This document shows positions 11,854 through 41,324 of a DNA stretch of 64,000 bases, in pieces. Each line of letters opens with the position of its first letter. Position 1 is the stretch's first letter. The notes beneath the pieces were generated by a model. That model did not search any database and had not been told where the DNA came from. It saw nothing but the letters and a program-made list of their open reading frames with translations. Source of the DNA: Escherichia coli (GTDB lineage Bacteria > Pseudomonadota > Gammaproteobacteria > Enterobacterales > Enterobacteriaceae). Location of the stretch: NCBI RefSeq assembly GCF_044324875.1, contig NZ_CP172185.1, one strand, 5' to 3'. Both the position numbers and the translations under genes were made by a program.

Positions 11854-12188
11854 AAGCGCATCCTCTAAGTGTAAATACATCAATGCAGCGTCATGCCGCG
11901 TAATAGATTTATGCTAACCAGTCATTGCCGTTTACGCCACGTTACGGACACTTTTTTACTTTTATACTCTAAATAATTCGAGTTGCAGGAAGGCGATAAG
12001 TGAGTGAGTCCCCAGGAGCTTACAGAAGTAAGTGACTGGGGTGAGCGAGCGTAAGCGCAGCACATGCAACTTGAAGTATGACGAGTATACTGCGAGGGTG
12101 ATCGACCGGCTGGGATTAGATAAGGAAACAGGCTACACTTCGCCTTTGAAAACTCATCATCACGATAAACATAGAGGCGAAGTCCAAC

Positions 12189-13856
12189 GTGGCTCAATTC
12201 GTTTATACCATGCATCGTGTCGGCAAAGTTGTTCCGCCGAAACGTCATATTTTGAAAAACATCTCTCTGAGTTTCTTCCCTGGGGCAAAAATTGGTGTCC
12301 TGGGTCTGAACGGCGCGGGTAAGTCCACCCTGCTGCGCATTATGGCGGGCATTGATAAAGACATCGAAGGCGAAGCGCGTCCGCAACCGGATATCAAGAT
12401 TGGTTATCTGCCGCAGGAACCGCAGCTGAACCCGGAACACACCGTGCGTGAGTCCATTGAAGAAGCGGTTTCAGAAGTGGTTAACGCCCTGAAACGCCTG
12501 GATGAAGTGTATGCGCTGTACGCCGATCCGGATGCCGATTTTGACAAGCTGGCCGCTGAACAAGGCCGTCTGGAAGAGATCATTCAGGCTCACGACGGTC
12601 ACAACCTGAACGTTCAGCTGGAGCGTGCGGCGGATGCGCTGCGTCTGCCGGACTGGGACGCGAAAATCGCTAACCTCTCCGGTGGTGAGCGTCGTCGCGT
12701 GGCGTTGTGCCGCCTGCTGCTGGAAAAACCAGACATGCTGCTGCTCGACGAACCGACCAACCACCTGGATGCCGAATCCGTGGCCTGGCTGGAACGCTTC
12801 CTGCACGACTTCGAAGGCACCGTTGTGGCGATTACCCACGACCGTTACTTCCTCGATAACGTTGCGGGCTGGATCCTCGAACTGGACCGCGGTGAAGGTA
12901 TTCCGTGGGAAGGTAACTACTCCTCCTGGCTGGAGCAGAAAGATCAGCGCCTGGCGCAGGAAGCTTCACAAGAAGCGGCGCGTCGTAAGTCGATCGAGAA
13001 AGAGCTGGAGTGGGTACGTCAGGGAACTAAAGGCCGCCAGTCGAAAGGTAAAGCACGTCTGGCACGCTTTGAAGAGCTGAACAGCACCGAATACCAGAAA
13101 CGTAACGAAACCAACGAACTGTTTATTCCACCTGGACCGCGTCTGGGCGATAAAGTGCTGGAAGTCAGCAACCTGCGTAAATCCTACGGCGATCGCCTGC
13201 TGATTGATGACCTGAGCTTCTCGATCCCGAAAGGGGCGATCGTCGGGATCATCGGTCCGAACGGCGCGGGTAAATCGACCCTGTTCCGTATGATCTCCGG
13301 TCAGGAACAGCCGGACAGCGGCACCATCACTTTGGGTGAAACGGTGAAACTGGCATCGGTTGATCAGTTCCGTGACTCAATGGATAACAGCAAAACCGTT
13401 TGGGAAGAAGTTTCCGGCGGGCTGGATATTATGAAGATCGGCAACACCGAGATGCCAAGCCGCGCCTACGTTGGCCGCTTTAACTTTAAAGGGGTTGATC
13501 AGGGTAAACGCGTTGGTGAACTTTCCGGTGGTGAGCGCGGTCGTCTGCATCTGGCGAAGCTGCTGCAAGTTGGCGGCAACATGCTGCTGCTCGACGAACC
13601 AACCAACGACCTGGATATCGAAACCCTGCGCGCGCTGGAAAACGCTCTGCTGGAGTTCCCGGGCTGCGCGATGGTTATCTCGCACGACCGTTGGTTCCTC
13701 GACCGTATCGCCACGCACATCCTGGACTACCAGGATGAAGGTAAAGTCGAGTTCTTCGAAGGTAACTTTACCGAGTACGAAGAATACAAGAAACGCACGC
13801 TGGGCGCAGACGCGCTGGAGCCGAAGCGTATCAAGTACAAGCGTATTGCGAAGTAA
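12189..13856 (+). CDS. ettA: ABC-F translation throttle protein EttA
   Basis: 555 aa; two ABC ATPase cassettes (GLNGAGKST; GPNGAGKST; LSGGE signatures); GTG start. Confidence 0.95.
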   Translation: MAQFVYTMHRVGKVVPPKRHILKNISLSFFPGAKIGVLGLNGAGKSTLLRIMAGIDKDIEGEARPQPDIKIGYLPQEPQLNPEHTVRESIEEAVSEVVNALKRLDEVYALYADPDADFDKLAAEQGRLEEIIQAHDGHNLNVQLERAADALRLPDWDAKIANLSGGERRRVALCRLLLEKPDMLLLDEPTNHLDAESVAWLERFLHDFEGTVVAITHDRYFLDNVAGWILELDRGEGIPWEGNYSSWLEQKDQRLAQEASQEAARRKSIEKELEWVRQGTKGRQSKGKARLARFEELNSTEYQKRNETNELFIPPGPRLGDKVLEVSNLRKSYGDRLLIDDLSFSIPKGAIVGIIGPNGAGKSTLFRMISGQEQPDSGTITLGETVKLASVDQFRDSMDNSKTVWEEVSGGLDIMKIGNTEMPSRAYVGRFNFKGVDQGKRVGELSGGERGRLHLAKLLQVGGNMLLLDEPTNDLDIETLRALENALLEFPGCAMVISHDRWFLDRIATHILDYQDEGKVEFFEGNFTEYEEYKKRTLGADALEPKRIKYKRIAK

Positions 13857-13865
13857 TGCGTAAAA

Positions 13866-13899
13866 TGCCGGATGCGGCGCGCCAGCATCGCATCCGGTA
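13866..13899. terminator. REP-like palindromic hairpin downstream of ettA
   Basis: gccggatgcggcgcgccagcatcgcatccggt: imperfect inverted repeat typical of REP units. Confidence 0.5.
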
Positions 13900-14011
13900 T
13901 TAGTTAAATGATTAGTCCCCGGAAAAAAGCAAAATTTTCTTTAAGCGTATTAGCTCAGATGCGGACTGACATCTCAAATCAAGCGGGAACTCATGGTTCC
14001 CGCTTAACGTT

Positions 14012-14899
14012 TTATTCACCGCGCAGGATCTGGCGGAAATGGGAAACCAGCGGACGTTGGTTGGCTTTATGCCAGGCTGCCCATAATTGCGTTGAATAAT
14101 TCATCCACGGCAATTCACGTAATACCACCCCTTCCGGCGCATTATGACGCAGACTATTTTGAATTAAGGCCAGACCTAATCCCGCAGCGACCAAACCTAA
14201 TGCCGTGAGGGGTTCACCCGCTTCCAGGCGAATATCAGGATTAAACCCGGCGTTAACACAGGCGGCGACAAAATGATCGCGAGAATGCGCATCGTCGTTA
14301 TGAATCACCGCAATCCACTGCTCATCGCCAAGTTGTGACGCGACAAGGTTTTCCTCCTGCGCCAGAGGATGATTTTGCGGTAAGGCCAACAACATTCGAT
14401 CATCCAGAACCTGAATATATTCCAGATCCTGCTCGCTGTCGGTGGGCGGCGTATCGACCAGAGAAAAATCGAGACTGCGCTGACGCAGGCCTTCAATCTG
14501 GGTAGCCGGTGGTTGGCTGTAAAGAGCGATATGCACATTCGGACGCGATACACGTAACGTACGTAGCGCCGTAGAAAGCACACCGGAATGCATGGCGTTT
14601 TCGATATAGCCAATACACAAGCCACCATCTTCCCCCCGTCCCAGGCGTTTGCCTAACGACTCCAGGCGGTTGGCGTGTGTCAGCAACGAACGTGTTTCGG
14701 CAAGGAATGTCTGTCCATCAGCGGTCAGGCGAATGCGCTGCTGATTACGCTCAAACAGCGTCAGTCCCAGCCGTTCTTCCAGTTGTGCAATCTGGCGGCT
14801 CAGCGGCGATTGCGAGATATGTAATCGCTCGGCTGCGCGTCCCACGTGCTCTTCTTCTGCGACCACCACGAAGTACTTCAGTTGGCGTAAATCAATCAT
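14012..14899 (-). CDS. LysR-family transcriptional regulator (accessory)
   Basis: ORF 14012..15028; likely start at Met 14899 giving MIDLRQLKYFVVVAEEEHVGRAAERLHISQSPLSRQIAQLEERLG... (LysR HTH); divergent from the aldo-keto reductase gene. Confidence 0.85.
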   Translation of the reverse strand: MIDLRQLKYFVVVAEEEHVGRAAERLHISQSPLSRQIAQLEERLGLTLFERNQQRIRLTADGQTFLAETRSLLTHANRLESLGKRLGRGEDGGLCIGYIENAMHSGVLSTALRTLRVSRPNVHIALYSQPPATQIEGLRQRSLDFSLVDTPPTDSEQDLEYIQVLDDRMLLALPQNHPLAQEENLVASQLGDEQWIAVIHNDDAHSRDHFVAACVNAGFNPDIRLEAGEPLTALGLVAAGLGLALIQNSLRHNAPEGVVLRELPWMNYSTQLWAAWHKANQRPLVSHFRQILRGE

Positions 14900-15031
14900 G
14901 TTAGACCTCAAAGGACTTAAGTCAGACGAATTATGTCCTATCAAGTCACAACCTCGCAAGGTATTGTGATCCACGTCACAGGGCAATAGCAAAAAACGCC
15001 CGAACCCAAACCGAATAATTGAGGACATCTT

Positions 15032-16042
15032 ATGAGCATCAAAAATTTACTTCCCGGCAAAATTGGCTTAGGCGGCGCACCACTCGGCAACATGTTCCGT
15101 GCCATTCCGGAAGAAGAGGCCCACGCCACCGTGAGCGAAGCCTGGAACCTGGGTGTGCGTTACTTTGATACCGCGCCGCTGTACGGCTCTGGCCTTTCTG
15201 AAATCCGCATGGGTGAAGCGCTGTCTCAGTATCCACGCGATGAATACGTTCTGAGTAGCAAAGTCGGTCGCATCGTGCTGGACGAAATGGAAGATCCGGC
15301 AAAACGGGATTTCGGTGAAAAAGGTGGCCTGTTCGAACACGGCCTGAAAAACAAAATTCTGAATGACTACTCTGCTGACGCCACGCTGCGCTCGATTGAA
15401 GACAGCCTGAAACGCCTGAAAACAGATCGTCTGGATATTGTCTGGATCCACGACCCGGCGCAGGACTTCTACGGTGACAGCTGGCTGGAGCAGTTCAACA
15501 TAGCCCGTACCGGTGCGTTTCGTGCGCTGACGCGTTTGCGTGACGAAGGTGTGATTAAAGCCTGGGGACTGGGTGTCAACCGCGTCGAACCTTGCGAACT
15601 GACGCTGGCGCTGGACGAACCGAAGCCGGATGCGTTCCTGCTGGCGGGGCGTTATTCCCTGCTGGATCACGAACGTGCGCTGCAACGCCTGATGCCAGAA
15701 GCACTGGAACAGAACGTGGATATTGTTGTGGGCGGTCCGTACAGCTCTGGCGTACTGGCAGGCGGCGAGCACTTTGAATATCAGAAAGCTTCTGCGGCCA
15801 TCCAGCAGAAAGTGGCGCAAATTAACGCCATTGCCACACGTTTCAATGTGAACGTTAAAGCGGCTGCGCTGCAGTTCGCGCTGGCAAACCCGGCCGTTGC
15901 AGCGGTTATTCCTGGCTCCAGCCGTCCTGGCCGTATGGCAGAAGATCTGGCTGCACTGAATGCGCCTGTTCCGGCTGAATTCTGGGCAGAAATGCGCCGT
16001 CAAAATCTGGTTGCGGAAAACGCTCCGCTGCCGACCCGTTAA
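15032..16042 (+). CDS. Aldo-keto reductase family oxidoreductase (accessory)
   Basis: 336 aa; AKR-like pattern (FDTAPLYG, IVWIHDP, LAGRYSLL); divergently paired with LysR regulator. Confidence 0.85.
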   Translation: MSIKNLLPGKIGLGGAPLGNMFRAIPEEEAHATVSEAWNLGVRYFDTAPLYGSGLSEIRMGEALSQYPRDEYVLSSKVGRIVLDEMEDPAKRDFGEKGGLFEHGLKNKILNDYSADATLRSIEDSLKRLKTDRLDIVWIHDPAQDFYGDSWLEQFNIARTGAFRALTRLRDEGVIKAWGLGVNRVEPCELTLALDEPKPDAFLLAGRYSLLDHERALQRLMPEALEQNVDIVVGGPYSSGVLAGGEHFEYQKASAAIQQKVAQINAIATRFNVNVKAAALQFALANPAVAAVIPGSSRPGRMAEDLAALNAPVPAEFWAEMRRQNLVAENAPLPTR

Positions 16043-16061
16043 TCAACCTGGTGAGAAAACG

Positions 16062-16858
16062 ATGAAACTGGATCTGACAGGTAAAGTCGCGGTGGTCAGC
16101 GGCTCAACCTCCGGCATTGGGCAGGGTATCGCCGCCGGACTGGCAAAAGCAGGCGCAACGGTGGTTGTCGTCGGCCGTAAACAGCGCGGCGTTGATGATG
16201 CCATGGCTGCGATTGCGGCACAAACTCCCACGGCGTCACTGCGCGGCGTGGTGGCCGATCTCAGCACCGAAGACGGCGTGGCTGCGCTGATCGCTGCAGT
16301 CCCAACGGCTGATGTGCTGGTCAATAATCTGGGCATTTTTAACGATAAAGATTTCTTTAGCGTTCCGGATGATGAGTGGATGCACTTCTATAACGTCAAC
16401 GTCCTCTCCGGCGTTCGTCTGGCGCGTCACTATGCGCCAGGCATGACGGAACAGGGCTGGGGCGGATTATCTTTGTCTCGTCTGAATCCGGCGTGGCAAT
16501 TCCTGGCGACATGATCAACTACGGCGTCACCAAAGCCGCGAATCTGGCGGTTTCTCATGGTCTGGCGAAACGACTGGCAGGGACCGGTGTGACCGTCAAC
16601 GCCATTCTGCCAGGGCCAACCTTTACCGATGGCCTGAAAGAGATGCTGGCGGATGCCGCTGCACAATCGGGACGCAGTGCGCGTGAACAGGCCGATGAGT
16701 TTGTTAAAACCTCGCGTCCGAGCTCCATCATCCAGCGTGCGGCGGATGTGGAAGAAGTGGCGAATCTGGCGGTTTATCTCGCGTCACCGCTTTCCTCGGC
16801 AACCACAGGGGCAGCCCTGCGCGTCGATGGCGGCGTCGTCGACACCCTGACAATGTAA
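16062..16858 (+). pseudogene. Short-chain dehydrogenase/reductase disrupted by a -1 frameshift
   Basis: N-terminal part MKLDLTGKVAVVSGSTSGIGQGIAAGLAKAGATVVVVGR (Rossmann TGxxxGIG) ends at 16514; C-terminal part (AIPGDMINYGVTKAA..., YxxxK active site) runs in a different frame to 16858; frames join at the G-run ctggggcgg near 16457-16463. Confidence 0.75.
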
Positions 16859-16883
16859 CCCTATAAATTAAGAGAAAATTATC

Positions 16884-17300
16884 ATGGCTAAAACAACTGT
16901 ATCGATCGAAATTCCGGCTTCTGCCGACGCCGTATGGCAATTGATGGGCGGCTTTGATGCGCTGCCAGACTGGCTGCCGTTCATCCCGAAAAGCGTAGTG
17001 ACAGAAGGCGGTCGCGTTCGTTCGCTGACAACCTCTGACGGCGGCACTGTGGTTGAACGTCTGGAAGCGTTTGATAACCGTCAACGCAGTTATACCTATT
17101 CCATTATTCAGGCACCGTTCCCGGTGGTGGATTACCTCTCCACCATTACCGTTCATGAAACCGCCGACAGCCAGGTTTCCCGTGTGGAATGGTTCGGTGA
17201 ATTCACCCCGGTGAATGTGACGAACGAAGAGGCCGAAGCGCTGTTTACCGGCATCTATCGGGATGGTCTCAAGGCGCTGAAGGACAACTTTGTTGCCTGA
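16884..17300 (+). CDS. SRPBCC (Bet v1-like / polyketide cyclase-like) family protein
   Basis: 138 aa; MAKTTVSIEIPASADAVWQLMGGFDALPDWLPFI... Confidence 0.7.
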   Translation: MAKTTVSIEIPASADAVWQLMGGFDALPDWLPFIPKSVVTEGGRVRSLTTSDGGTVVERLEAFDNRQRSYTYSIIQAPFPVVDYLSTITVHETADSQVSRVEWFGEFTPVNVTNEEAEALFTGIYRDGLKALKDNFVA

Positions 17301-17457
17301 TGCGATCGACAGGCGTCGGAACGTCCGGCGTCTGATTATTAACAAAAACAGAATAGTCTATTGCCATTTGTATCATTTATGTTATCAGGCAGTAGGCGTA
17401 TTCTCTCCCCATCGCGTTAATAAACGCCAAACAATTAAGACACTCTGGAATATAAAC

Positions 17458-17670
17458 ATGAAAACGATCATCGCAATTTTTACGGCTTCTCTTTTCTCTG
17501 TCGCGGCGTTTAACGCATCGGCGCAAAGCGTGACAGCAACCGGTACAACACTGGATTCCGCTGAAGCGGTTATTGCGCAGAAAGCGAAAGAGATGAACGC
17601 CTCTGAATACAAAATTACCAGCGCTCGCATGGGCAATACCGTCACCATGAGTGCCGAACTGTACAAATAA
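17458..17670 (+). CDS. DUF1471 (YdgH/BhsA/McbA-like) small secreted protein
   Basis: 70 aa with signal peptide MKTIIAIFTASLFSVAAFNASA and ...ASEYKITSARMGNTVTMSAELYK. Confidence 0.7.
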   Translation: MKTIIAIFTASLFSVAAFNASAQSVTATGTTLDSAEAVIAQKAKEMNASEYKITSARMGNTVTMSAELYK

Positions 17671-17694
17671 CCGCACGAGAGACCCATTACGTAA

Positions 17695-18001
17695 TTTGCT
17701 AAATATGCGCTGAATGCGTTGCCATTAATAAACCGTATTGTAATGCCACCGATGACGCGTTCCCGTGCGGGTGACGTTGCGACTGACATAATGGCGGCCT
17801 ATTACGCGCAGCGCGCCAGTGCTGGACTTTTCATTAGCGAAGGTACGCAAATCAGCAGAAGCGCTGCGCATAATTTTCCACGGCACGCTGATTTACTCCG
17901 GTAAAGACACCAAAGCGCGCGCCGAACAGGCGCTGGCTAACGGCTAGTCGGATCTGATTGGATTTGGTCGTCCGTATAGTGCCAAAAGCGGAAGTTGGTA
18001 G
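17695..18001 (+). pseudogene. Remnant of Old-Yellow-Enzyme family NADH:flavin oxidoreductase (NemA-like), internally deleted with stop codons
   Basis: Frame reads ...ALPLINRIVMPPMTRSRAGDVATDIMAAYYAQRASAGLFISEGTQIS (OYE N-terminus) then ...YSGKDTKARAEQALANG*SDLIGFGRPY... (OYE C-terminal motifs); about 250 central codons missing. Confidence 0.65.
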
Positions 18002-18097
18002 TTTCAGCCTATGTTGATAAACGGGGAGCCGGTCAGCACGTAAAGAGATTTTTTTGTACTGCTATGGCCCGATCAAAAATCGATTGAGCCGAATGTG

Positions 18098-18469
18098 CTA
18101 GCTATCTCCGAAGATAATTTTTTCGAGCTCCTGCAAGTCCTGCTGTGATTGCTCGTTAAGGTTAGCCTCTAACTTGTCGTACCATGTAAGCAGTTTCTTG
18201 CCAAGTGGTGTCAAAACCGAGCCTCCACCTTTACTGCCGCCTGTTGATGTAATTACCACCGGCTTACCTATGCCTTTATTGAGTGTATCAATCAGGAGCC
18301 ACGCCCTTTTATAGGGGATTCCCAGATCTTTTGCGGCAGCTGAAAGGGAATGAAACCCATCTATAGCTCGTAAAAGATCGATTTTCCCCGGTCCCAGCGA
18401 GATATTGTCATTAATGTAGATTCGGGGTCTGACCAAAATAAAATCAAACATAAGCGTTTTTTTATTCAT
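18098..18469 (-). CDS. ModE N-terminal-domain-like winged-helix regulator (no Mop domains)
   Basis: ORF 18098..18487; GGAG about 9 nt before Met at 18469; LGPGKIDLLRAIDGFHSLSAAAKDLGIPYKRAWLLIDTLNKGIGKPVVITSTGGSKGGGSVLTPLGKKLL resembles ModE N-domain (GGKGGGGAVLT). Confidence 0.7.
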   Translation of the reverse strand: MNKKTLMFDFILVRPRIYINDNISLGPGKIDLLRAIDGFHSLSAAAKDLGIPYKRAWLLIDTLNKGIGKPVVITSTGGSKGGGSVLTPLGKKLLTWYDKLEANLNEQSQQDLQELEKIIFGDS

Positions 18470-18494
18470 TCTGAGAACTCCGTGCAAAGTATTT

Positions 18495-19301
18495 TTATCG
18501 GGTGTGTTTGAAAGTTTTGATGGCAGAAATAAGAAGGATCACACCAAGTAAAGTCATAAGGGCTTTAAGTGGGAACAAGCCGACCATAAGTCCACCAATT
18601 GCTGCACCAATTACTGAACCAATAACCATCCATACAAACAGTGTCCTTTCTTGCTTCAGAATCAGGAAAGCATCTGCATTTATATAACGGGAAAAGCCAA
18701 CAATCATTGTTGGCAGGCTAATCATCAGTGAAAGACTTCCGGCCAGTTTAATATCTTCCCCGAAAAGGATAACGATTGTGGGGATAAGAAGCTCTCCGCC
18801 AGCCACTCCGAGCAATGCTGCGACTATCCCGATAAAGCCCCCTGATACCACCCCCACAATAATCATGGCAAGGCCAGGTTGAAATAACCCGCCTGAAATA
18901 CTGTGCAACGGCATCTAGGCTTCAGAGAGCATGACAAAAGACAGTAAAACAAGCAGGATCAGAATGATTCTGTCCAGCCAGATTCTGGACATCTTTATGG
19001 CACGACCTGCGGCCCACCATGCTCCAATAAGACTTCCTGCCAGCAAATTTATGACAATATCAAGATGCGCCACCAACTGATCAAAAGATATAGATTTTGT
19101 TCGGAAAATTAAAGCAATAGCCACCACGGCGAGACTCATTGCTTTGTTAAAAATGACGGCTTCCAGAGAAGGGATTTTGAAACTACCGATCAGTACGGGA
19201 AGGCGAAATTCAGCCCCTCCGAGGCCAATCAACCCACCTAAAGCCCCTATTACCGCGCCTGAGAAAAAACCTTTACCATTCCTGTTTGAAACTGACGACA
19301 T
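18495..19301 (-). pseudogene. TauE/SafE-family (DUF81) membrane permease interrupted by in-frame amber codon
   Basis: Two adjacent same-frame ORFs (19301..18915 and 18914..18495) separated only by TAG at 18917-18915; each half has Gly-rich transmembrane helices; combined about 268 aa. Confidence 0.7.
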
Positions 19302-19714
19302 GCGTTCCTCTCTAATTCGTTATGTCTTTTTTGACATAACGACAAGCATAGCATTGCAGAACAGGCGTCTGGTAGTTGCTTGTAAAGACGAGGATTGATC
19401 CAGGTTAAAATTTATTCTATTAACCTGCTCTCCGTTGTTTAACACACCACGATTTATGTGATGCTTTCATGAGAAATTAAAACAACTAAGAACTTCCGCT
19501 TCTCGCTCGAAGCGGACTGTCAGATTTGATTGCATTCTGGCTACGCAACTGGTCGGTTGGAGTATGAAGTTGCTCACGAATAGCCTTAGCATCCGCAATT
19601 TCGTAGCGGGTCACCCGTGCAGGTTCTTTCTAATCTCAACAGCCTCTTCCAGAGAGTTTTTCAACTCATCAAAAAACTCAATTTATACCTCGCCTTTGAG
19701 CCGTTTCATCACGG

Positions 19715-20947
19715 TTATCTCTGCTCCCCCATCATCTCCCGCACAAGTTCCACGCAGCGCAGGAAACGGCTGTCATAATCGTCCTCTTCAACACGCACGA
19801 ATTCGATATTGTTCTCTTCCAGCATCTCCACCAGCAAGTTCTGGAACTCTTTGCGATCCACCGAACTACCGAGGCTGCGTAAACCATCCGCCACCCACGG
19901 GGTGTTGTTCTCCAGCAAGATAACCAGATCAAAACGGTATTCATCAATCAGCGCCTGCACGAACGGATGCTCACGCCCTTCGTACTTTTTGCAGAACGCC
20001 TGGGTAGTGACAAAATCAGTGTCGATAAACGCCACTTTATTGGCGTATTTCACTGCAAAATCAATATATTGCGCGTGTCCCAGCGCGATTTTATCGTAGT
20101 CAGAATACTGCAATGCGATCTCATCACCGCCGAGGTGTGAAAAGACATAATCGCGACCATATTCCCACGCACTGGTGGTATTGAAGATATTGGCAAGTTT
20201 GTTTACCAGGGTGGATTTACCGCTCGACTCGCCGCCAAGGATCGCCACGGTACGCACAAAAAACGGCTTCACTTCAGTGGGGATATATTCCCAGTAGCGG
20301 AACGGGTTTTCGCGGATCTGCGCACCGCTGATACTCATAAAGGTGCGTTTCGGATCGACCAGCACCGTTTCGATCCCCAGATGTTCCATATACTGTGGCG
20401 CATCGGCTTCTTCCGAGGTGTAGATCAGGTCCGGCTGGATCCCCTTTTCAGCCATAAACTTTTTGATGCCATTGCTCCACACATCCCAGCCGTGCGGATA
20501 TGGCTCCATGCCCTCTTCGTTGAAAGCATGAATACGGATATTTTTCTGATATTTAAAGGTTTGCAATAACCAGCGCAGACGATCCGGCACGGTGGGCTGC
20601 TGCGACATGGCGCTGTCTTCAAACAACGCACGGTCACGGGTATCGTCAAAGCCCATAATGATATGCAGCTCGTCAACCTGGCTACAGGCGCGCTGGATAA
20701 GGTAGATATGTCCGGTATGTAGCGGGTAGAACTTACCGAATACGACACCAATGGTTTTCTTCTGCCGGGGAAATTCAAGCCCCAAAAAACGGTGCAACGC
20801 CTCCAGCTTTTGCGCGCTGGGGCTTTTAATTTTGGCATTCAGTAACTGGCTTAAATACCCTTTGGTCATACCGCTGGCATCAGCTACCTGCTGTAGCGTG
20901 CAGCCCTGTTGCTTGATGGCAGTTTTCAGGTAATCAAATGACGACAT
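19715..20947 (-). CDS. nadR: Bifunctional NMN adenylyltransferase / ribosylnicotinamide kinase and transcriptional regulator NadR
   Basis: ORF 19715..20968; 410 aa from MSSFDYLKTAIKQQGCTLQQVADASGMTKGYLSQLLNAK... (HTH), HTGH nucleotidyltransferase motif, P-loop GGESSGKST. Confidence 0.95.
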   Translation of the reverse strand: MSSFDYLKTAIKQQGCTLQQVADASGMTKGYLSQLLNAKIKSPSAQKLEALHRFLGLEFPRQKKTIGVVFGKFYPLHTGHIYLIQRACSQVDELHIIMGFDDTRDRALFEDSAMSQQPTVPDRLRWLLQTFKYQKNIRIHAFNEEGMEPYPHGWDVWSNGIKKFMAEKGIQPDLIYTSEEADAPQYMEHLGIETVLVDPKRTFMSISGAQIRENPFRYWEYIPTEVKPFFVRTVAILGGESSGKSTLVNKLANIFNTTSAWEYGRDYVFSHLGGDEIALQYSDYDKIALGHAQYIDFAVKYANKVAFIDTDFVTTQAFCKKYEGREHPFVQALIDEYRFDLVILLENNTPWVADGLRSLGSSVDRKEFQNLLVEMLEENNIEFVRVEEDDYDSRFLRCVELVREMMGEQR

Positions 20948-20967
20948 ATCTCCCTCCGTATCTCTCA

Positions 20968-22350
20968 TTATAAGTCGTCGAACACGCTAAGCGCGTCGGA
21001 GAGTTTTTTAACGCCAAAAATCTGCATCCCTTCCGGCGCTTTTTTCGGCACGTTAGCCGCCGGAACAATCGCCCGCCGAAAACCGTGTTTCGCCGCTTCA
21101 GAGATTCGTTCCTGGCCGCTGGGCACCGGGCGGATCTCCCCTGCCAGCCCGACTTCACCAAACACCACCAGATCCTGCGGTAGCGGTCTATCACGCAGGC
21201 TGGAAACCATCGCCAGCAGTAACGCTAAGTCGGCACTGGTTTCCGTCACCTTCACGCCGCCGACCACGTTAACAAATACATCCTGATCGGCCATTTGCAA
21301 CCCACCGTGACGGTGCAGCACCGCCAGCAGGATTGCCAGACGGTTTTGCTCCAGCCCTACTGCGACGCGGCGTGGATTCGCCATCATCGAGTGATCGACC
21401 AATGCCTGGATCTCCACCAGCAGTGGACGCGTTCCTTCCCATACCACCATCACTGAGCTACCGGAGGTCACTTCATCACCGCGGCTTAAAAAGATGGCGG
21501 AAGGGTTGCTAACTTCACGCAGCCCCTGTTCGGTCATCGCGAAGACGCCCAGCTCATTCACCGCGCCGAAGCGGTTTTTATGGCTGCGTAAGGTGCGAAA
21601 ACGGGAGTCGGCATCGCCATCCAGAAGCACCGAACAGTCGATACAGTGTTCCAGCACTTTAGGGCCAGCCAGCGAGCCATCTTTGGTTACGTGCCCAACC
21701 ATGACAATCGCCACACCGCGCGTTTTGGCGAAGCGCGTCAGATAAGCCGCCGTTTCACGCACCTGCGCCACGCTGCCAGGCGATGACTGAACATCCGCCA
21801 TATGCATCACCTGGATCGAGTCAATTACCATCAGCTTCGGTTGCTCTTCTTCGGCAATCAGGCAGATTTGTTCGATGCTGGTTTCAGACAGCATATTGAG
21901 ATTGTCAGTCGGCAGGCCAAGGCGATGAGCGCGCATTGCCACCTGTTGCAGCGACTCTTCGCCGGTGACATACAGCGTTTTCATCTGCTGGGCCAGTTTG
22001 CACAGCGTTTGCAACAGCAGCGTGGATTTCCCCGCGCCTGGGTTACCGCCAATCAGAATGGCGCTTCCCGGCACCACCCCGCCGCCTAATACGCGGTCGA
22101 ACTCTTTAAATCCGGTGGAAAAACGCGGCAGCTCTTCAAGGCTGATGTCGGAAAGTTTCTGGACTTTTGCCACCCCGGCGCTACCGGCATAGCCACTGAG
22201 ACGCTCGTTACGCGCCACCGTTGGCGACGCTGCAAGACGCACCTCGGTGATGGTGTTCCAGGCATGACAGGCGCTGCACTGCCCCTGCCAGCGCGGATAA
22301 TCGGCCCCGCATTCATTACAAACAAAGGCGCGTTTTGGAGCTTTTGCCAC
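20968..22350 (-). CDS. radA: DNA repair protein RadA/Sms
   Basis: ORF 20968..22398; GTG start at 22350 gives 460 aa (V/M)AKAPKRAFVCNECGADYPRWQGQCSAC... (zinc finger), Walker A GGNPGAGKST, Lon-like C-terminus. Confidence 0.95.
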   Translation of the reverse strand: MAKAPKRAFVCNECGADYPRWQGQCSACHAWNTITEVRLAASPTVARNERLSGYAGSAGVAKVQKLSDISLEELPRFSTGFKEFDRVLGGGVVPGSAILIGGNPGAGKSTLLLQTLCKLAQQMKTLYVTGEESLQQVAMRAHRLGLPTDNLNMLSETSIEQICLIAEEEQPKLMVIDSIQVMHMADVQSSPGSVAQVRETAAYLTRFAKTRGVAIVMVGHVTKDGSLAGPKVLEHCIDCSVLLDGDADSRFRTLRSHKNRFGAVNELGVFAMTEQGLREVSNPSAIFLSRGDEVTSGSSVMVVWEGTRPLLVEIQALVDHSMMANPRRVAVGLEQNRLAILLAVLHRHGGLQMADQDVFVNVVGGVKVTETSADLALLLAMVSSLRDRPLPQDLVVFGEVGLAGEIRPVPSGQERISEAAKHGFRRAIVPAANVPKKAPEGMQIFGVKKLSDALSVFDDL

Positions 22351-22398
22351 GGTGTACCTCGTTAATGCTGTGCCGCCCGCAGGATGACGGGCGAGCAA

Positions 22399-23367
22399 TT
22401 ACTTCTGATTCAGGCTGCCAGAGAGGATGCAGAATACCCCCATCAGGTCAGCGTGACGGATGGTGACTTCCGTCTTTTCATTCACTTTTGGCTTGGCATG
22501 GTAGGCAATCCCCAGCCCTGCCGCTTTGATCATCGGCAGGTCATTGGCTCCATCACCAATCGCCACGGTCTGCGCCAGCGGGATTTCATACTCCTGCGCG
22601 AGGCGAGTCAGAGTTTTCGCTTTGTACTGCGCGTCTACGATGTCGCCGATCACATTGCCGGTAAATTTACCGTCCATGATCTCCAGTTCATTGGCTACCA
22701 CGGCTGTCAGGCGCAGCTTGTCGCGCAGGTATTCAGCAAAGAAAGTAAAGCCACCGGAGGCAATCGCCACTTTCCAGCCCAGCGTTTCCAGCTTGAGTAC
22801 CAGTTGCGTTAAGCCTGGCATCAGCGGCAGATTTTCACGCACCTGTTGCAGAATATTGGCGTCAGCGCCTTTCAGCGTCGCCACGCGGCTGCGCAGGCTG
22901 GCGGTAAAATCGAGTTCGCCGCGCATCGCCCGTTCGGTTACCTCCGCCACCATCTCGCCCGTTCCGGCCAGTTTGGCAATTTCATCAATACATTCAATCT
23001 GGATGGCGGTGGAATCCATGTCCATCACCAGCAAACCCGGCGTGCGCAGGTGCGGGATTTTCCCCAGCGGCGCGACATCCAGCTGCGCTTCGTGAGCCAG
23101 GCGCGTAGCCCGCGCGGTGAGTGAACCTGCCAGACGAATCACCTGATAATCTTCCACGCACCAGGCGGCAACAATCACCATCGCCGCGCCCAGTTTGCTC
23201 TGGTATTGGGTCAGACGTTGTTTATCCAGCCCACGACCATACAGCAGCCAGCCGCTACGACCTGCGTGGTAATCCAGTGGCATCACTTCATCACCACTTA
23301 ATGAAAGAGGCAGCCCCGGCCATAAAGAGACATCTTCAGGCAGGTCGCACCAGGTAATGTTAGGCAT
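22399..23367 (-). CDS. serB: Phosphoserine phosphatase
   Basis: ORF 22399..23505; 322 aa from MPNITWCDLPEDVSLWPGLPL...; HAD motif LVMDMDSTAI. Confidence 0.95.
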   Translation of the reverse strand: MPNITWCDLPEDVSLWPGLPLSLSGDEVMPLDYHAGRSGWLLYGRGLDKQRLTQYQSKLGAAMVIVAAWCVEDYQVIRLAGSLTARATRLAHEAQLDVAPLGKIPHLRTPGLLVMDMDSTAIQIECIDEIAKLAGTGEMVAEVTERAMRGELDFTASLRSRVATLKGADANILQQVRENLPLMPGLTQLVLKLETLGWKVAIASGGFTFFAEYLRDKLRLTAVVANELEIMDGKFTGNVIGDIVDAQYKAKTLTRLAQEYEIPLAQTVAIGDGANDLPMIKAAGLGIAYHAKPKVNEKTEVTIRHADLMGVFCILSGSLNQK

Positions 23368-23472
23368 TAAGGCTCCTGTAAAATCGTTCGAAGCAGGGAA
23401 AATAACGCATGAGGCTACCTTGTATCCATTGCTTCTGGCAACATTAAGTCTCAAATTTTCAAAGGGTGGAAG

Positions 23473-24117
23473 ATGGCTCGCACAAAACTGAAATTCCGGC
23501 TGCATCGGGCAGTGATTGTCCTGTTCTGTCTTGCCTTGTTAGTGGCGCTGATGCAGGGAGCGTCATGGTTTAGTCAAAACCACCAGCGACAGCGTAATCC
23601 TCAGCTGGAAGAACTGGCCCGCACCCTGGCGCGTCAGGTGACGCTGAACGTTGCACCGCTGATGCGTACCGACTCACCGGATGAAAAACGCATTCAGGCG
23701 ATCCTCGATCAGTTAACGGATGAAAGCCGCATCCTCGACGCGGGCGTGTATGACGAACAAGGCGATCTTATCGCCCGTTCTGGCGAAAGCGTCGAAGTGC
23801 GCGACCGGTTGGCGCTCGACGGCAAAAAAGCGGGCGGCTATTTTAACCAGCAGATTGTCGAACCCATTGCCGGGAAAAACGGACCGCTCGGCTATCTGCG
23901 CCTGACGCTCGACACCCATACGCTCGCCACCGAAGCCCAACAGGTGGATAACACCACTAACATTTTACGCCTGATGTTGCTGCTCTCACTGGCAATCGGC
24001 GTAGTGCTGACCCGCACGCTGCTACAGGGTAAACGCACCCGCTGGCAGCAATCGCCCTTCCTGTTAACCGCCAGCAAACCGGTGCCGGAAGAGGAAGAAA
24101 GCGAGAAAAAAGAGTGA
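23473..24117 (+). CDS. ytjB: Membrane protein YtjB (Smp)
   Basis: 214 aa; MARTKLKFRLHRAVIVLFCLALLVALMQGASWF... Confidence 0.85.
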   Translation: MARTKLKFRLHRAVIVLFCLALLVALMQGASWFSQNHQRQRNPQLEELARTLARQVTLNVAPLMRTDSPDEKRIQAILDQLTDESRILDAGVYDEQGDLIARSGESVEVRDRLALDGKKAGGYFNQQIVEPIAGKNGPLGYLRLTLDTHTLATEAQQVDNTTNILRLMLLLSLAIGVVLTRTLLQGKRTRWQQSPFLLTASKPVPEEEESEKKE

Positions 24118-24144
24118 CCCATTACTACAAGAAAGGAAATCGTT

Positions 24145-25161
24145 ATGTCCACATTACGCCTGCTCATCTCTGACTCTTACGATCCGTGGTTTAACCTGGC
24201 GGTGGAGGAGTGTATTTTTCGCCAGATGCCCGCCACGCAGCGCGTTCTGTTTCTCTGGCGCAATGCCGACACGGTAGTGATTGGTCGCGCACAGAACCCG
24301 TGGAAAGAGTGTAATACCCGGCGGATGGAAGAAGATAACGTCCGCCTGGCGCGGCGCAGTAGCGGTGGCGGCGCGGTGTTCCACGATCTCGGTAATACCT
24401 GCTTTACCTTTATGGCTGGCAAGCCGGAGTACGATAAAACTATCTCCACGTCGATTGTGCTTAATGCGCTGAACGCGCTCGGCGTCACCGCCGAAGCGTC
24501 CGGACGTAACGATCTGGTGGTGAAAACCGCCGAAGGCGACCGCAAAGTCTCAGGCTCGGCCTATCGCGAAACCAAAGATCGCGGCTTCCACCACGGCACC
24601 TTGCTGCTCAATGCCGACCTTAGCCGCCTGGCAAACTATCTCAATCCGGATAAAAAGAAACTGGCGGCGAAAGGCATTACGTCGGTACGTTCCCGCGTGA
24701 CCAACCTCACCGAGCTGTTGCCGGGGATCACCCATGAGCAGGTTTGCGAGGCCATAACCAAGGCCTTTTTCGCCCATTATGGCGAGCGCGTGGAAGCGGA
24801 AATCATCTCCCCAGACAAAACGCCAGACTTGCCAAACTTCGCCGAAACCTTTGCCCGTCAGAGTAGCTGGGAGTGGAACTTCGGTCAGGCTCCGGCGTTC
24901 TCACATCTGCTGGATGAACGCTTCACCTGGGGCGGCGTAGAACTGCATTTCGACGTTGAAAAAGGCCATATCACCCGCGCCCAGGTGTTTACCGACAGCC
25001 TCAACCCCGCGCCGCTGGAAGCCCTCGCCGGGCGACTGCAAGGCTGCCTGTACCGCGCGGATATGCTGCAACAGGAGTGCGAAGCGCTGTTGGTTGACTT
25101 CCCGGAACAGGAAAAAGAGCTACGGGAGTTGTCTGCGTGGATAGCGGGGGCGGTAAGGTAA
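24145..25161 (+). CDS. lplA: Lipoate-protein ligase A
   Basis: 338 aa; [57 protein letters not shown]... Confidence 0.95.
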
Positions 25162-25192
25162 CTCGCTGATTAAAATATCCAGGGAAGGAAAT

Positions 25193-25456
25193 ATGATCGA
25201 TCTGGAAAACCAGGAACGGGAGATTATCAATTTAATGTTCAGCCAGGGTATATCATGGCTAACCGCCGTGCGTATCAGGCATAAACTATCACTTGCTGAA
25301 GTAAGTAAAATGTTAGGTATCTCCATTAATTCTCTAATACAGATCGAAAAGACGGAACGGCTTAGTTCAAACATCAAAAGCAAAATGGCAGGAATTTATG
25401 GTTGTCCACCAGAGTTGCTGATATGCCCTTCCTGGATGACGGCTGAACATAAATGA
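25193..25456 (+). CDS. XRE-type helix-turn-helix small protein (87 aa), at the K-12 yjjJ position
   Basis: agggaagg 5 nt before ATG; LSLAEVSKMLGISINSLIQIEKTE resembles HTH_XRE; followed by AT-rich non-coding DNA. Confidence 0.55.
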   Translation: MIDLENQEREIINLMFSQGISWLTAVRIRHKLSLAEVSKMLGISINSLIQIEKTERLSSNIKSKMAGIYGCPPELLICPSWMTAEHK

Positions 25457-25551
25457 ATAGATTCGTGAATAGATACTTGAATGTATTTTATTTTCTATCC
25501 ATATGAAAAATAATAGTGAATCTATAAATCAGTTGCTATTGATGAATAGAT

Positions 25552-25582
25552 ACTAAAAAGCCGGAGCAGTCCCCCACTCCGG
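25552..25582 (-). terminator. Rho-independent terminator downstream of deoD
   Basis: Minus strand gccggagtgggggactgctccggc followed by ttttt. Confidence 0.65.
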
Positions 25583-25616
25583 CTTAACACGACGTTCGCC
25601 TTTCAGCAAAACACAA

Positions 25617-26336
25617 TTACTCTTTATCGCCCAGCAGAACGGATTCCAGTGCGATTTTGATCATGTCGTTGAAGGTGGTCTGACGCTCAGCGGCAGTGGT
25701 CTGCTCGTGAGTGCGGATGTGGTCAGATACGGTACAGATGGTCAGGGCTTTCGCGCCAAATTCTGCAGCGACGCCGTAGATACCAGCTGCTTCCATTTCC
25801 ACGCCGAGGATGCCGTATTTTTCCATCACGTCGAACATTTCGCCGTCCGGAGAGTAGAACAGGTCAGCGGAGAACAGGTTACCAACGCGAGCATCAACGC
25901 CCAGTGCTTTAGCCGCGTCTACCGCGTTACGCACCATGTCAAAGTCAGCGATAGCGGCAAAGTCATGGTCTTTAAAACGGATGCGGTTAACTTTGGAATC
26001 GGTGCAGGCACCCATACCGATAACGACGTCGCGCAGTTTTACGTGTGGCAGAACAGCGCCACAGGAGCCTACGCGGATAATTTTCTTCACGCCGAAATCG
26101 GTGATCAGTTCTTTGGTGTAGATGGAGCAGGACGGGATACCCATACCGTGACCCATTACGGAAATTTTGCGGCCTTTGTAAGTACCGGTGAAGCCCAGCA
26201 TACCGCGAACGTTGTTCACTTCACGGGCATCTTCAAGGAAAGTTTCAGCAATATACTTCGCACGCAGCGGGTCGCCTGGCATCAAAACTACGTCAGCGAA
26301 ATCGCCCATTTCTGCATTAATGTGTGGGGTAGCCAT
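25617..26336 (-). CDS. deoD: Purine nucleoside phosphorylase DeoD
   Basis: 239 aa; [55 protein letters not shown]... Confidence 0.97.
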
Positions 26337-26339
26337 TGT

Positions 26340-26412
26340 TTTATCCTTATCAACATGTTTTCACCCTCTCCCTGTGGGAGAGGGCCGGGGTGAGGGCATC
26401 AAGCCGCACCCA
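26340..26412. repeat. Intergenic palindromic element between deoB and deoD
   Basis: ccctctccc-tgt-gggagaggg inverted repeat followed by ccggggtgagggc. Confidence 0.5.
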
Positions 26413-26415
26413 TTA

Positions 26416-27660
<1,245 letters not shown>

Positions 27661-41001: not shown

Positions 41002-41088
41002 GCGAAGGTGGCGGAATTGGTAGACGCGCTAGCTTCAGGTGTTAGTGTCCTTACGGACGTGGGGGTTCAAGTCCCCCCCCTCGCACCA
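41002..41088 (+). tRNA. leuQ: tRNA-Leu (anticodon CAG), copy 1
   Basis: GCGAAGGTGGCGGAATTGGTAGACGCGCTAGCTTCAGGTGTTAGTGTCCTTACGGACGTGGGGGTTCAAGTCCCCCCCCTCGCACCA; cloverleaf with long variable arm. Confidence 0.93.
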
Positions 41089-41116
41089 AAAACCACGTTG
41101 ATATTGCTCGCACTGG

Positions 41117-41203
41117 GCGAAGGTGGCGGAATTGGTAGACGCGCTAGCTTCAGGTGTTAGTGTTCTTACGGACGTGGGGGTTCAAGTCCCCCCCCTCGCA
41201 CCA
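41117..41203 (+). tRNA. leuP: tRNA-Leu (CAG), copy 2, with C-to-T change in variable arm
   Basis: Identical to copy 1 except GTGTTCTTACGG for GTGTCCTTACGG. Confidence 0.9.
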
Positions 41204-41237
41204 AACGAGGCGATATCAAAAAAAGTAAGACGACTGT

Positions 41238-41324
41238 GCGAAGGTGGCGGAATTGGTAGACGCGCTAGCTTCAGGTGTTAGTGTCCTTACGGACGTGGGG
41301 GTTCAAGTTCCCCCCCTCGCACCA
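41238..41324 (+). tRNA. leuV: tRNA-Leu (CAG), copy 3, with C-to-T change in T-stem
   Basis: Identical to copy 1 except TTCAAGTTCCCC for TTCAAGTCCCCC (G-U wobble in T-stem). Confidence 0.9.

Follow-up and report, generated by a model that had tools for sequence, protein, structure and literature searches.

In the window, by which we mean the whole stretch of 64,000 nucleotides of Escherichia coli DNA analyzed here, the gene of an SDR-family oxidoreductase (16062–16858, + strand) lacks one of the five G residues of a homopolymer run and encodes a truncated protein. The same state is found in another assembly. It is very probable that the deletion is real and that it represents a very recent loss-of-function mutation in a dispensable accessory SDR gene, with G5 converted to G4 by probable strand slippage.

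The pseudogene, an ortholog of the gene for WP_000762714.1, is 797 nt in length, one base shorter than the intact gene (798 nt, 265 aa), and no compensating indel is present. Alignment with three intact E. coli copies gave a single gap, located in the G run at 16459–16462 (+ strand), which reads GGGG in the window and GGGGG in the others. In the intact homologs the G5 sits within the codons TGG GGG CGG (Trp133-Gly134-Arg135), and it is the sole G/C run of five or more nucleotides in the gene. According to both the sequence and the ORF list, the gene starts with ATG at 16062 and frame 0 terminates at TGA (16512–16514). The truncated ORF (16062–16514, + strand) specifies 134 native residues with an out-of-frame tail of 16 (GLSLSRLNPAWQFLAT); its frame-0 translation ends in PGMTEQGWGGLSLSRLNPAWQFLAT directly before the stop codon, exactly as an earlier inspection of the DNA letters (the sequence-only reading) had quoted it. 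The continuation lies in the −1 frame, where translation from 16463 reads RIIFVSSESGVAIPGDMINYGVTK..., covers native residues 135–265 (RIIFVSSESG...YGVTK...; 16463–16858, + strand), and ends at the stop codon 16856–16858. The earliest in-frame starts in the −1 frame are GTG at 16493 and ATG at 16511. The latter overlaps the frame-0 stop as ATGA (16511–16514) and opens the 115-aa C-terminal ORF reported by gene callers.

According to the sequence-only reading, the gene was split at a G run by a switch to the −1 frame; the same reading had proposed a comparison with orthologs. That comparison, with G5 in the intact E. coli copies and G4 in the window, bears out the claim. The switch had been placed at the string ctggggcgg; the string is indeed present, but it spans 16457–16465 rather than 16457–16463, and the G run itself occupies 16459–16462. 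Insertion of one G yields a 798-nt gene and a protein of 265 aa, which is the length expected in the sequence-only reading, and this protein is identical to WP_000762714.1 of strain MEI003. The peptide across the junction of the full-length product spans EQGWGRIIFVSSESG. Only three DNA differences separate the repaired gene from that of MEI003, and all three are synonymous, indicating that no further decay has accumulated.

The repaired protein is predicted from its sequence to be a classical SDR. It matched the Pfam profiles adh_short_C2 (PF13561; 152.3 bits, E = 2e-44, gathering cut-off 27) and adh_short (PF00106; 130.3 bits, E = 8e-38, gathering cut-off 26.6). The N-terminal piece corresponds to positions 1–129 only of the adh_short profile and the C-terminal piece to positions 142–235 of adh_short_C2; since the two halves match consecutive parts of the Pfam profiles, the resemblance is not a matter of chance. 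In an NCBIfam search with the repaired protein, no model attained its curated cut-off. The nearest solved structure was PDB 8g9m (E = 1.5e-137), an uncharacterized protein described as 'oxidoreductase, short chain dehydrogenase/reductase family'. The repaired protein shares with the classical SDRs (PF00106 and PF13561) the glycine-rich motif (GSTSGIG at residues 14–20), NNLG at residue 88, the serine (Ser141), and the YxxxK motif (Tyr154-x-x-x-Lys158). Unlike in these enzymes, the catalytic half is out of frame in the window.

The consequence of the deletion can be outlined as follows. One G would have dropped from the G5 run, most likely by strand slippage at DNA replication; translation from ATG 16062 would then leave the native frame after Gly134 and end at TGA 16512–16514, and the 150-aa product would retain the Rossmann nucleotide-binding part and lose the catalytic residues Ser141, Tyr154, and Lys158. 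The motifs are distributed in this way between the frames: the glycine-rich dinucleotide-binding motif of the TGxxxGxG type, GSTSGIG, is encoded in the frame-0 fragment, and the 150-aa frame-0 product keeps this motif and NNLG without Ser141, Tyr154, or Lys158. Only in the repaired reading does one polypeptide contain both the cofactor-binding fold and the catalytic Ser and Tyr-x-x-x-Lys; the frame-0 product does not. In addition, residues 135–150, including Ser141, are encoded by neither the 150-aa nor the 115-aa ORF. Judging from the standard catalytic architecture of SDRs, the enzyme is probably dead, and coupled re-initiation would not be able to rebuild it, because residues 135–150 would be missing from both pieces even if translation restarted at ATGA. 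Fission into two working genes was considered as well, and was ruled out since neither ORF contains residues 135–150 with the catalytic Ser141.

A megablast search detected the SDR locus in 482 of the 5,426 RefSeq complete E. coli genomes (approximately 9%), where it is always single and always chromosomal. Each of the full-length matches listed spans 902 nt as compared to the 901-nt query. Its annotation in these genomes is 'SDR family NAD(P)-dependent oxidoreductase', with 'aldo/keto reductase' and 'SRPBCC family protein' on either side. The limited number of complete genomes holding the island (482 of 5,426) shows that it is accessory, and the SDR gene is an accessory, dispensable one. The uninterrupted SDR protein was found on at least 1000 contigs. 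The G4 state is rare: a 39-nt G4 probe, which spans the run and is unable to seed on G5 copies, had no match among the 5,426 complete genomes. The GTDB representative genomes likewise gave no match to a G4 probe of 28 nt.

The accessory island lies between ettA and nadR and consists of a LysR gene (− strand), the genes for the aldo/keto reductase (AKR), SDR, SRPBCC, and DUF1471 proteins, an OYE-like remnant, and genes for a winged-helix regulator and TauE, followed by a nadS remnant. The AKR gene directly upstream of the SDR gene (15032–16042, + strand) is intact and separated from the SDR start by a gap of 19 nt; the two genes are probably in the same operon. Directly downstream is an intact gene for an SRPBCC/polyketide-cyclase-like protein (16884–17300, + strand), and the divergent LysR-family regulator gene (14012–14899, − strand) is intact as well. 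The gene for a TauE/SafE exporter in the same island (18495–19301, − strand) is inactivated by a change of Trp129 from TGG to TAG (18915–18917). It differs from the intact PCN033 copy by two nucleotides, the nonsense change included, and is a second very young pseudogene in the island.

Two further elements of the island look like old decay common to other strains. One is the N-terminal remnant of an OYE/NemA-like flavin oxidoreductase (17719–17904, + strand; MPLINRIVMPPMTRSRA...), at which the references annotate a partial 'hypothetical protein'. The other is the nadS remnant (about 19600–19700, − strand), which shows gaps of 10 nt and 1 nt compared to the references. At a distance from the island, just past a BrnT/BrnA toxin-antitoxin pair, the region 59976–62853 (− strand) encodes a 699-aa GmrSD-type (DUF262/DUF1524) type IV restriction enzyme with a C-terminal DUF5655, and the adjoining gene encodes a 244-aa protein with a weak match to Fic below the Pfam cut-off. 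The alignment with strain 315 stops just before these GmrSD-type and Fic-like genes, and strain 315 has an IS1 remnant there, followed by mdtM. Over its entire length, the window is collinear with the segment of the E. coli chromosome that runs from yjtD and arcA to yjiA. Among the 5,426 complete genomes of E. coli in RefSeq, however, even the best match shares only 98.2–98.9% identity, suggesting that the lineage of the window is poorly represented there.

The sequence-only reading had left the choice between a pseudogene and a homopolymer sequencing error, and three lines of evidence favor a real mutation: a matching Logan contig, the clean state of the rest of the window, and the neighboring nonsense substitution. 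The artifact explanation, in which the genome truly has G5 and the consensus lost one G, is unlikely, although several observations speak for it. The site of the lesion is a homopolymer. According to the GeneTack study (PMC3711429), when a gene is well sampled and just a single genome shows a frameshift in it, that frameshift is often an error. Three noisy long-read assemblies (L010, which is ECZU36, L012, and L014) carry spurious-looking indels in the SDR gene. Finally, the repaired gene has no other damage, and an artifact would look equally clean. On the other hand, the indels in the noisy assemblies are scattered through the gene and do not lie at the G run, and a run of five is short for a consensus error with short reads.

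The first line of evidence comes from an assembly that was built separately. The 150-aa truncated protein was found, as an exact match, on the Logan read-level contig ERR1512459_138 (reported in 4 samples), which is 100.000% identical to positions 12060–26514 of the window over 14,455 nt, G4 included. The ERR1512459 contig could stem from the same reads as the assembly of the window, in which case it would represent only the agreement of a second assembler.

The second line of evidence is a census of assembly quality, in which the window was aligned to the annotated genomes of PCN033 and strain 315 at a divergence of 1.3–2%. Only a handful of small indels were found, and that in the G run of the SDR gene is the sole one inside an otherwise intact CDS. 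The remaining indels are intergenic (some of them in A runs) or lie in the nadS remnant, which is already a pseudogene in the references. A tblastn comparison showed that 57 of the 59 reference CDSs are full-length, gap-free, and stop-free in the window. None of the long runs differs from the references in length: the three tRNA-Leu genes have two C8 runs and one C7 run, creC has a T9, creD and btsT have G6, and there is a G7 run. If the assembly miscalled G5, some of these longer runs should have been miscalled too, and none was, which argues against an error; no other coding homopolymer mismatch exists in the 64 kb, even at C8, T9, and G7. A generally error-prone assembly was ruled out by this census together with the comparison of the 59 CDSs. 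The three tRNA-Leu(CAG) genes are arranged in tandem at 41002–41324 (+ strand), and their C8, C8, and C7 runs have the reference length in all. In leu tRNA genes of E. coli, G·C runs of 8 bp have been described as indel hotspots (PMC8510543), and the two C8 copies in the window correspond to them in kind.

The third line of evidence is the second broken CDS, TauE/SafE, located 2.4 kb from the SDR gene. Its inactivating change is a substitution, and a homopolymer miscall cannot make a nonsense substitution; the lineage of the window therefore carries at least one fresh pseudogene in this island.

The loss of one G from this run is seen on several allele backgrounds. The 115-aa C-terminal fragment was found on 62 contigs, and the sequences at ten places were fetched. 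Five of them besides the window's own have G4 and no other gap in the gene (L007, which is CP027763.1, L008, L009, L011, and L013). The three noisy assemblies have G5 and indels scattered elsewhere in the gene, and one sequence (L005) has a large 5′ deletion. The G4 alleles differ mutually by 22–45 SNPs over 2.27 kb, and the SNPs nearest to the run differ too. The closest G5 relative of the window allele is MEI003 (3 SNPs within the gene and 20 over the 2.27-kb region). L007, itself from an O145:H28 genome, is closest to the complete genomes of its O145:H28 clone mates, from which only the one-base gap sets it apart over 2,269 nt. The closest G5 relatives of L009 are FDAARGOS_497 and 118UI (99.8%), and that of L013 is an O158:H23 strain (99.5%). 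L009 is also separated from the G5 copies L012 and L010 by only 4–6 SNPs. The nesting of each G4 allele among G5 relatives points to at least four independent G5-to-G4 events. The L009-type allele, the most common one with G4, was present on 21 Logan contigs whose runs bear three different accession prefixes, indicating that it is inherited in a clone. Altogether, the G4 alleles account for approximately 30 contigs over the six fragment types that were looked up, as compared to at least 1000 contigs for the intact protein. In the L009 lineage, the adjacent AKR gene has in addition lost four nucleotides, GTGT (L009:1526–2532; the deletion is homologous to window positions 15153–15156), and is thereby split into pieces of 72 aa and 277 aa.

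In E. coli, the rate of indels in a homopolymer increases exponentially as the run gets longer (PMC8510543). The SDR gene has no G/C run of five or more besides the G5, which makes this the expected hotspot of slippage. Recurrent neutral slippage, presumably under relaxed selection, thus explains the observed pattern well, and neither selection nor a switch is needed.

The same recurrence can be read differently. The G5 tract may be a site of recurrent inactivation, hit in at least four lineages, two of which have a second fresh lesion in the island, and the cause may be niche selection against the LysR/AKR/SDR/SRPBCC redox island or a low-rate on/off switch, not neutral decay. We give this proposal little credence. 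A related reading, in which the G5 tract acts as a contingency-like mutational switch or the loss is convergently selected as advantageous in some niche, is very unlikely. In its favor, G4 occurs amid G5 relatives on no fewer than four allele backgrounds, and additional lesions accompany it in two lineages (the 4-nt AKR deletion in that of L009 and the loss of TauE in that of the window). Both tract lengths also occur among very close relatives (L007 and the O145:H28 genomes; L009 and the copies L012 and L010). In this respect, and in the on/off change by one G, the locus resembles the phase-variable poly-G/C loci of Neisseria, Haemophilus, and Campylobacter. It differs from them in having a tract of only 5 nt, a cytoplasmic enzyme as its product, a rare off state, and no observed reversal. 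The GeneTack study flagged phase variation from a minimum repeat length of 7 nt (PMC3711429), and the tract of the SDR gene, being G5 or G4, is shorter than this and is not the long hypermutable tract of contingency loci. The product is neither a surface protein nor a restriction-modification protein, the G4 alleles are rare (approximately 30 contigs against at least 1000 with the intact protein), and no change from G4 back to G5 was observed. Moreover, as the gene has no other G/C run of at least five, repeated loss at the G5 is just what neutral slippage predicts for a dispensable gene.

It is scarcely credible that the G run serves for functional recoding, with the full-length enzyme still made by way of a programmed −1 ribosomal frameshift or of transcriptional slippage. 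If tRNA-Gly slipped once in the P site, from GGC to GGG, the native W-G-R-I-I would be regained exactly, and low-level spontaneous slippage of this kind is possible. The arrangement of consecutive ORFs, whose −1 fusion yields one domain, also resembles genes with programmed −1 frameshifts such as dnaX and the transposase genes of IS elements. It differs from these in three respects. No slippery X XXY YYZ heptamer is present in frame 0 at the switch, where the codons are CAG GGC TGG GGC GGA. No stimulatory RNA structure was found in the 97 nt downstream, which fold like shuffled sequence (MFE of −25 kcal/mol compared to a shuffle mean of −25.5; z = 0.16). Finally, conservation of the frameshift among homologs is lacking (0 of the 5,426 complete genomes, as against at least 1000 contigs with the intact protein). 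In addition, transcriptional slippage usually takes place at homopolymeric runs of A or T (PMC3711429). A programmed frameshift or transcriptional slippage was rejected on the lack of a heptamer, of a downstream structure, and of conservation.

With a recent slippage deletion as the preferred reading, the SDR locus is an ordinary frameshift pseudogene of the youngest class, a kind that is already known. Young bacterial pseudogenes have been described as a class (PMC2916853; see also PMC3711429). As in the frameshift pseudogenes of enterobacteria that arise from homopolymer indels (PMC2916853, PMC8510543), one base is lost from a run, a premature stop follows, relatives have intact orthologs, no further decay is seen, and the gene is a dispensable accessory one. 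There is no essential difference from these pseudogenes; the additional feature is the identical lesion on several allele backgrounds.

The finding implies no new biology, and the parallel origin of the deletion in several lineages is its only mildly notable point. For annotation, the 150-aa and 115-aa ORFs should be merged into a single frameshifted pseudogene instead of being listed as two hypothetical proteins, and the enzyme should be counted as absent from the strain. The identical lesion in unrelated lineages offers a small, clean case of a homopolymer hotspot giving parallel changes, and it advises caution both in the use of indels as phylogenetic markers and in dismissing every homopolymer frameshift as a sequencing error.
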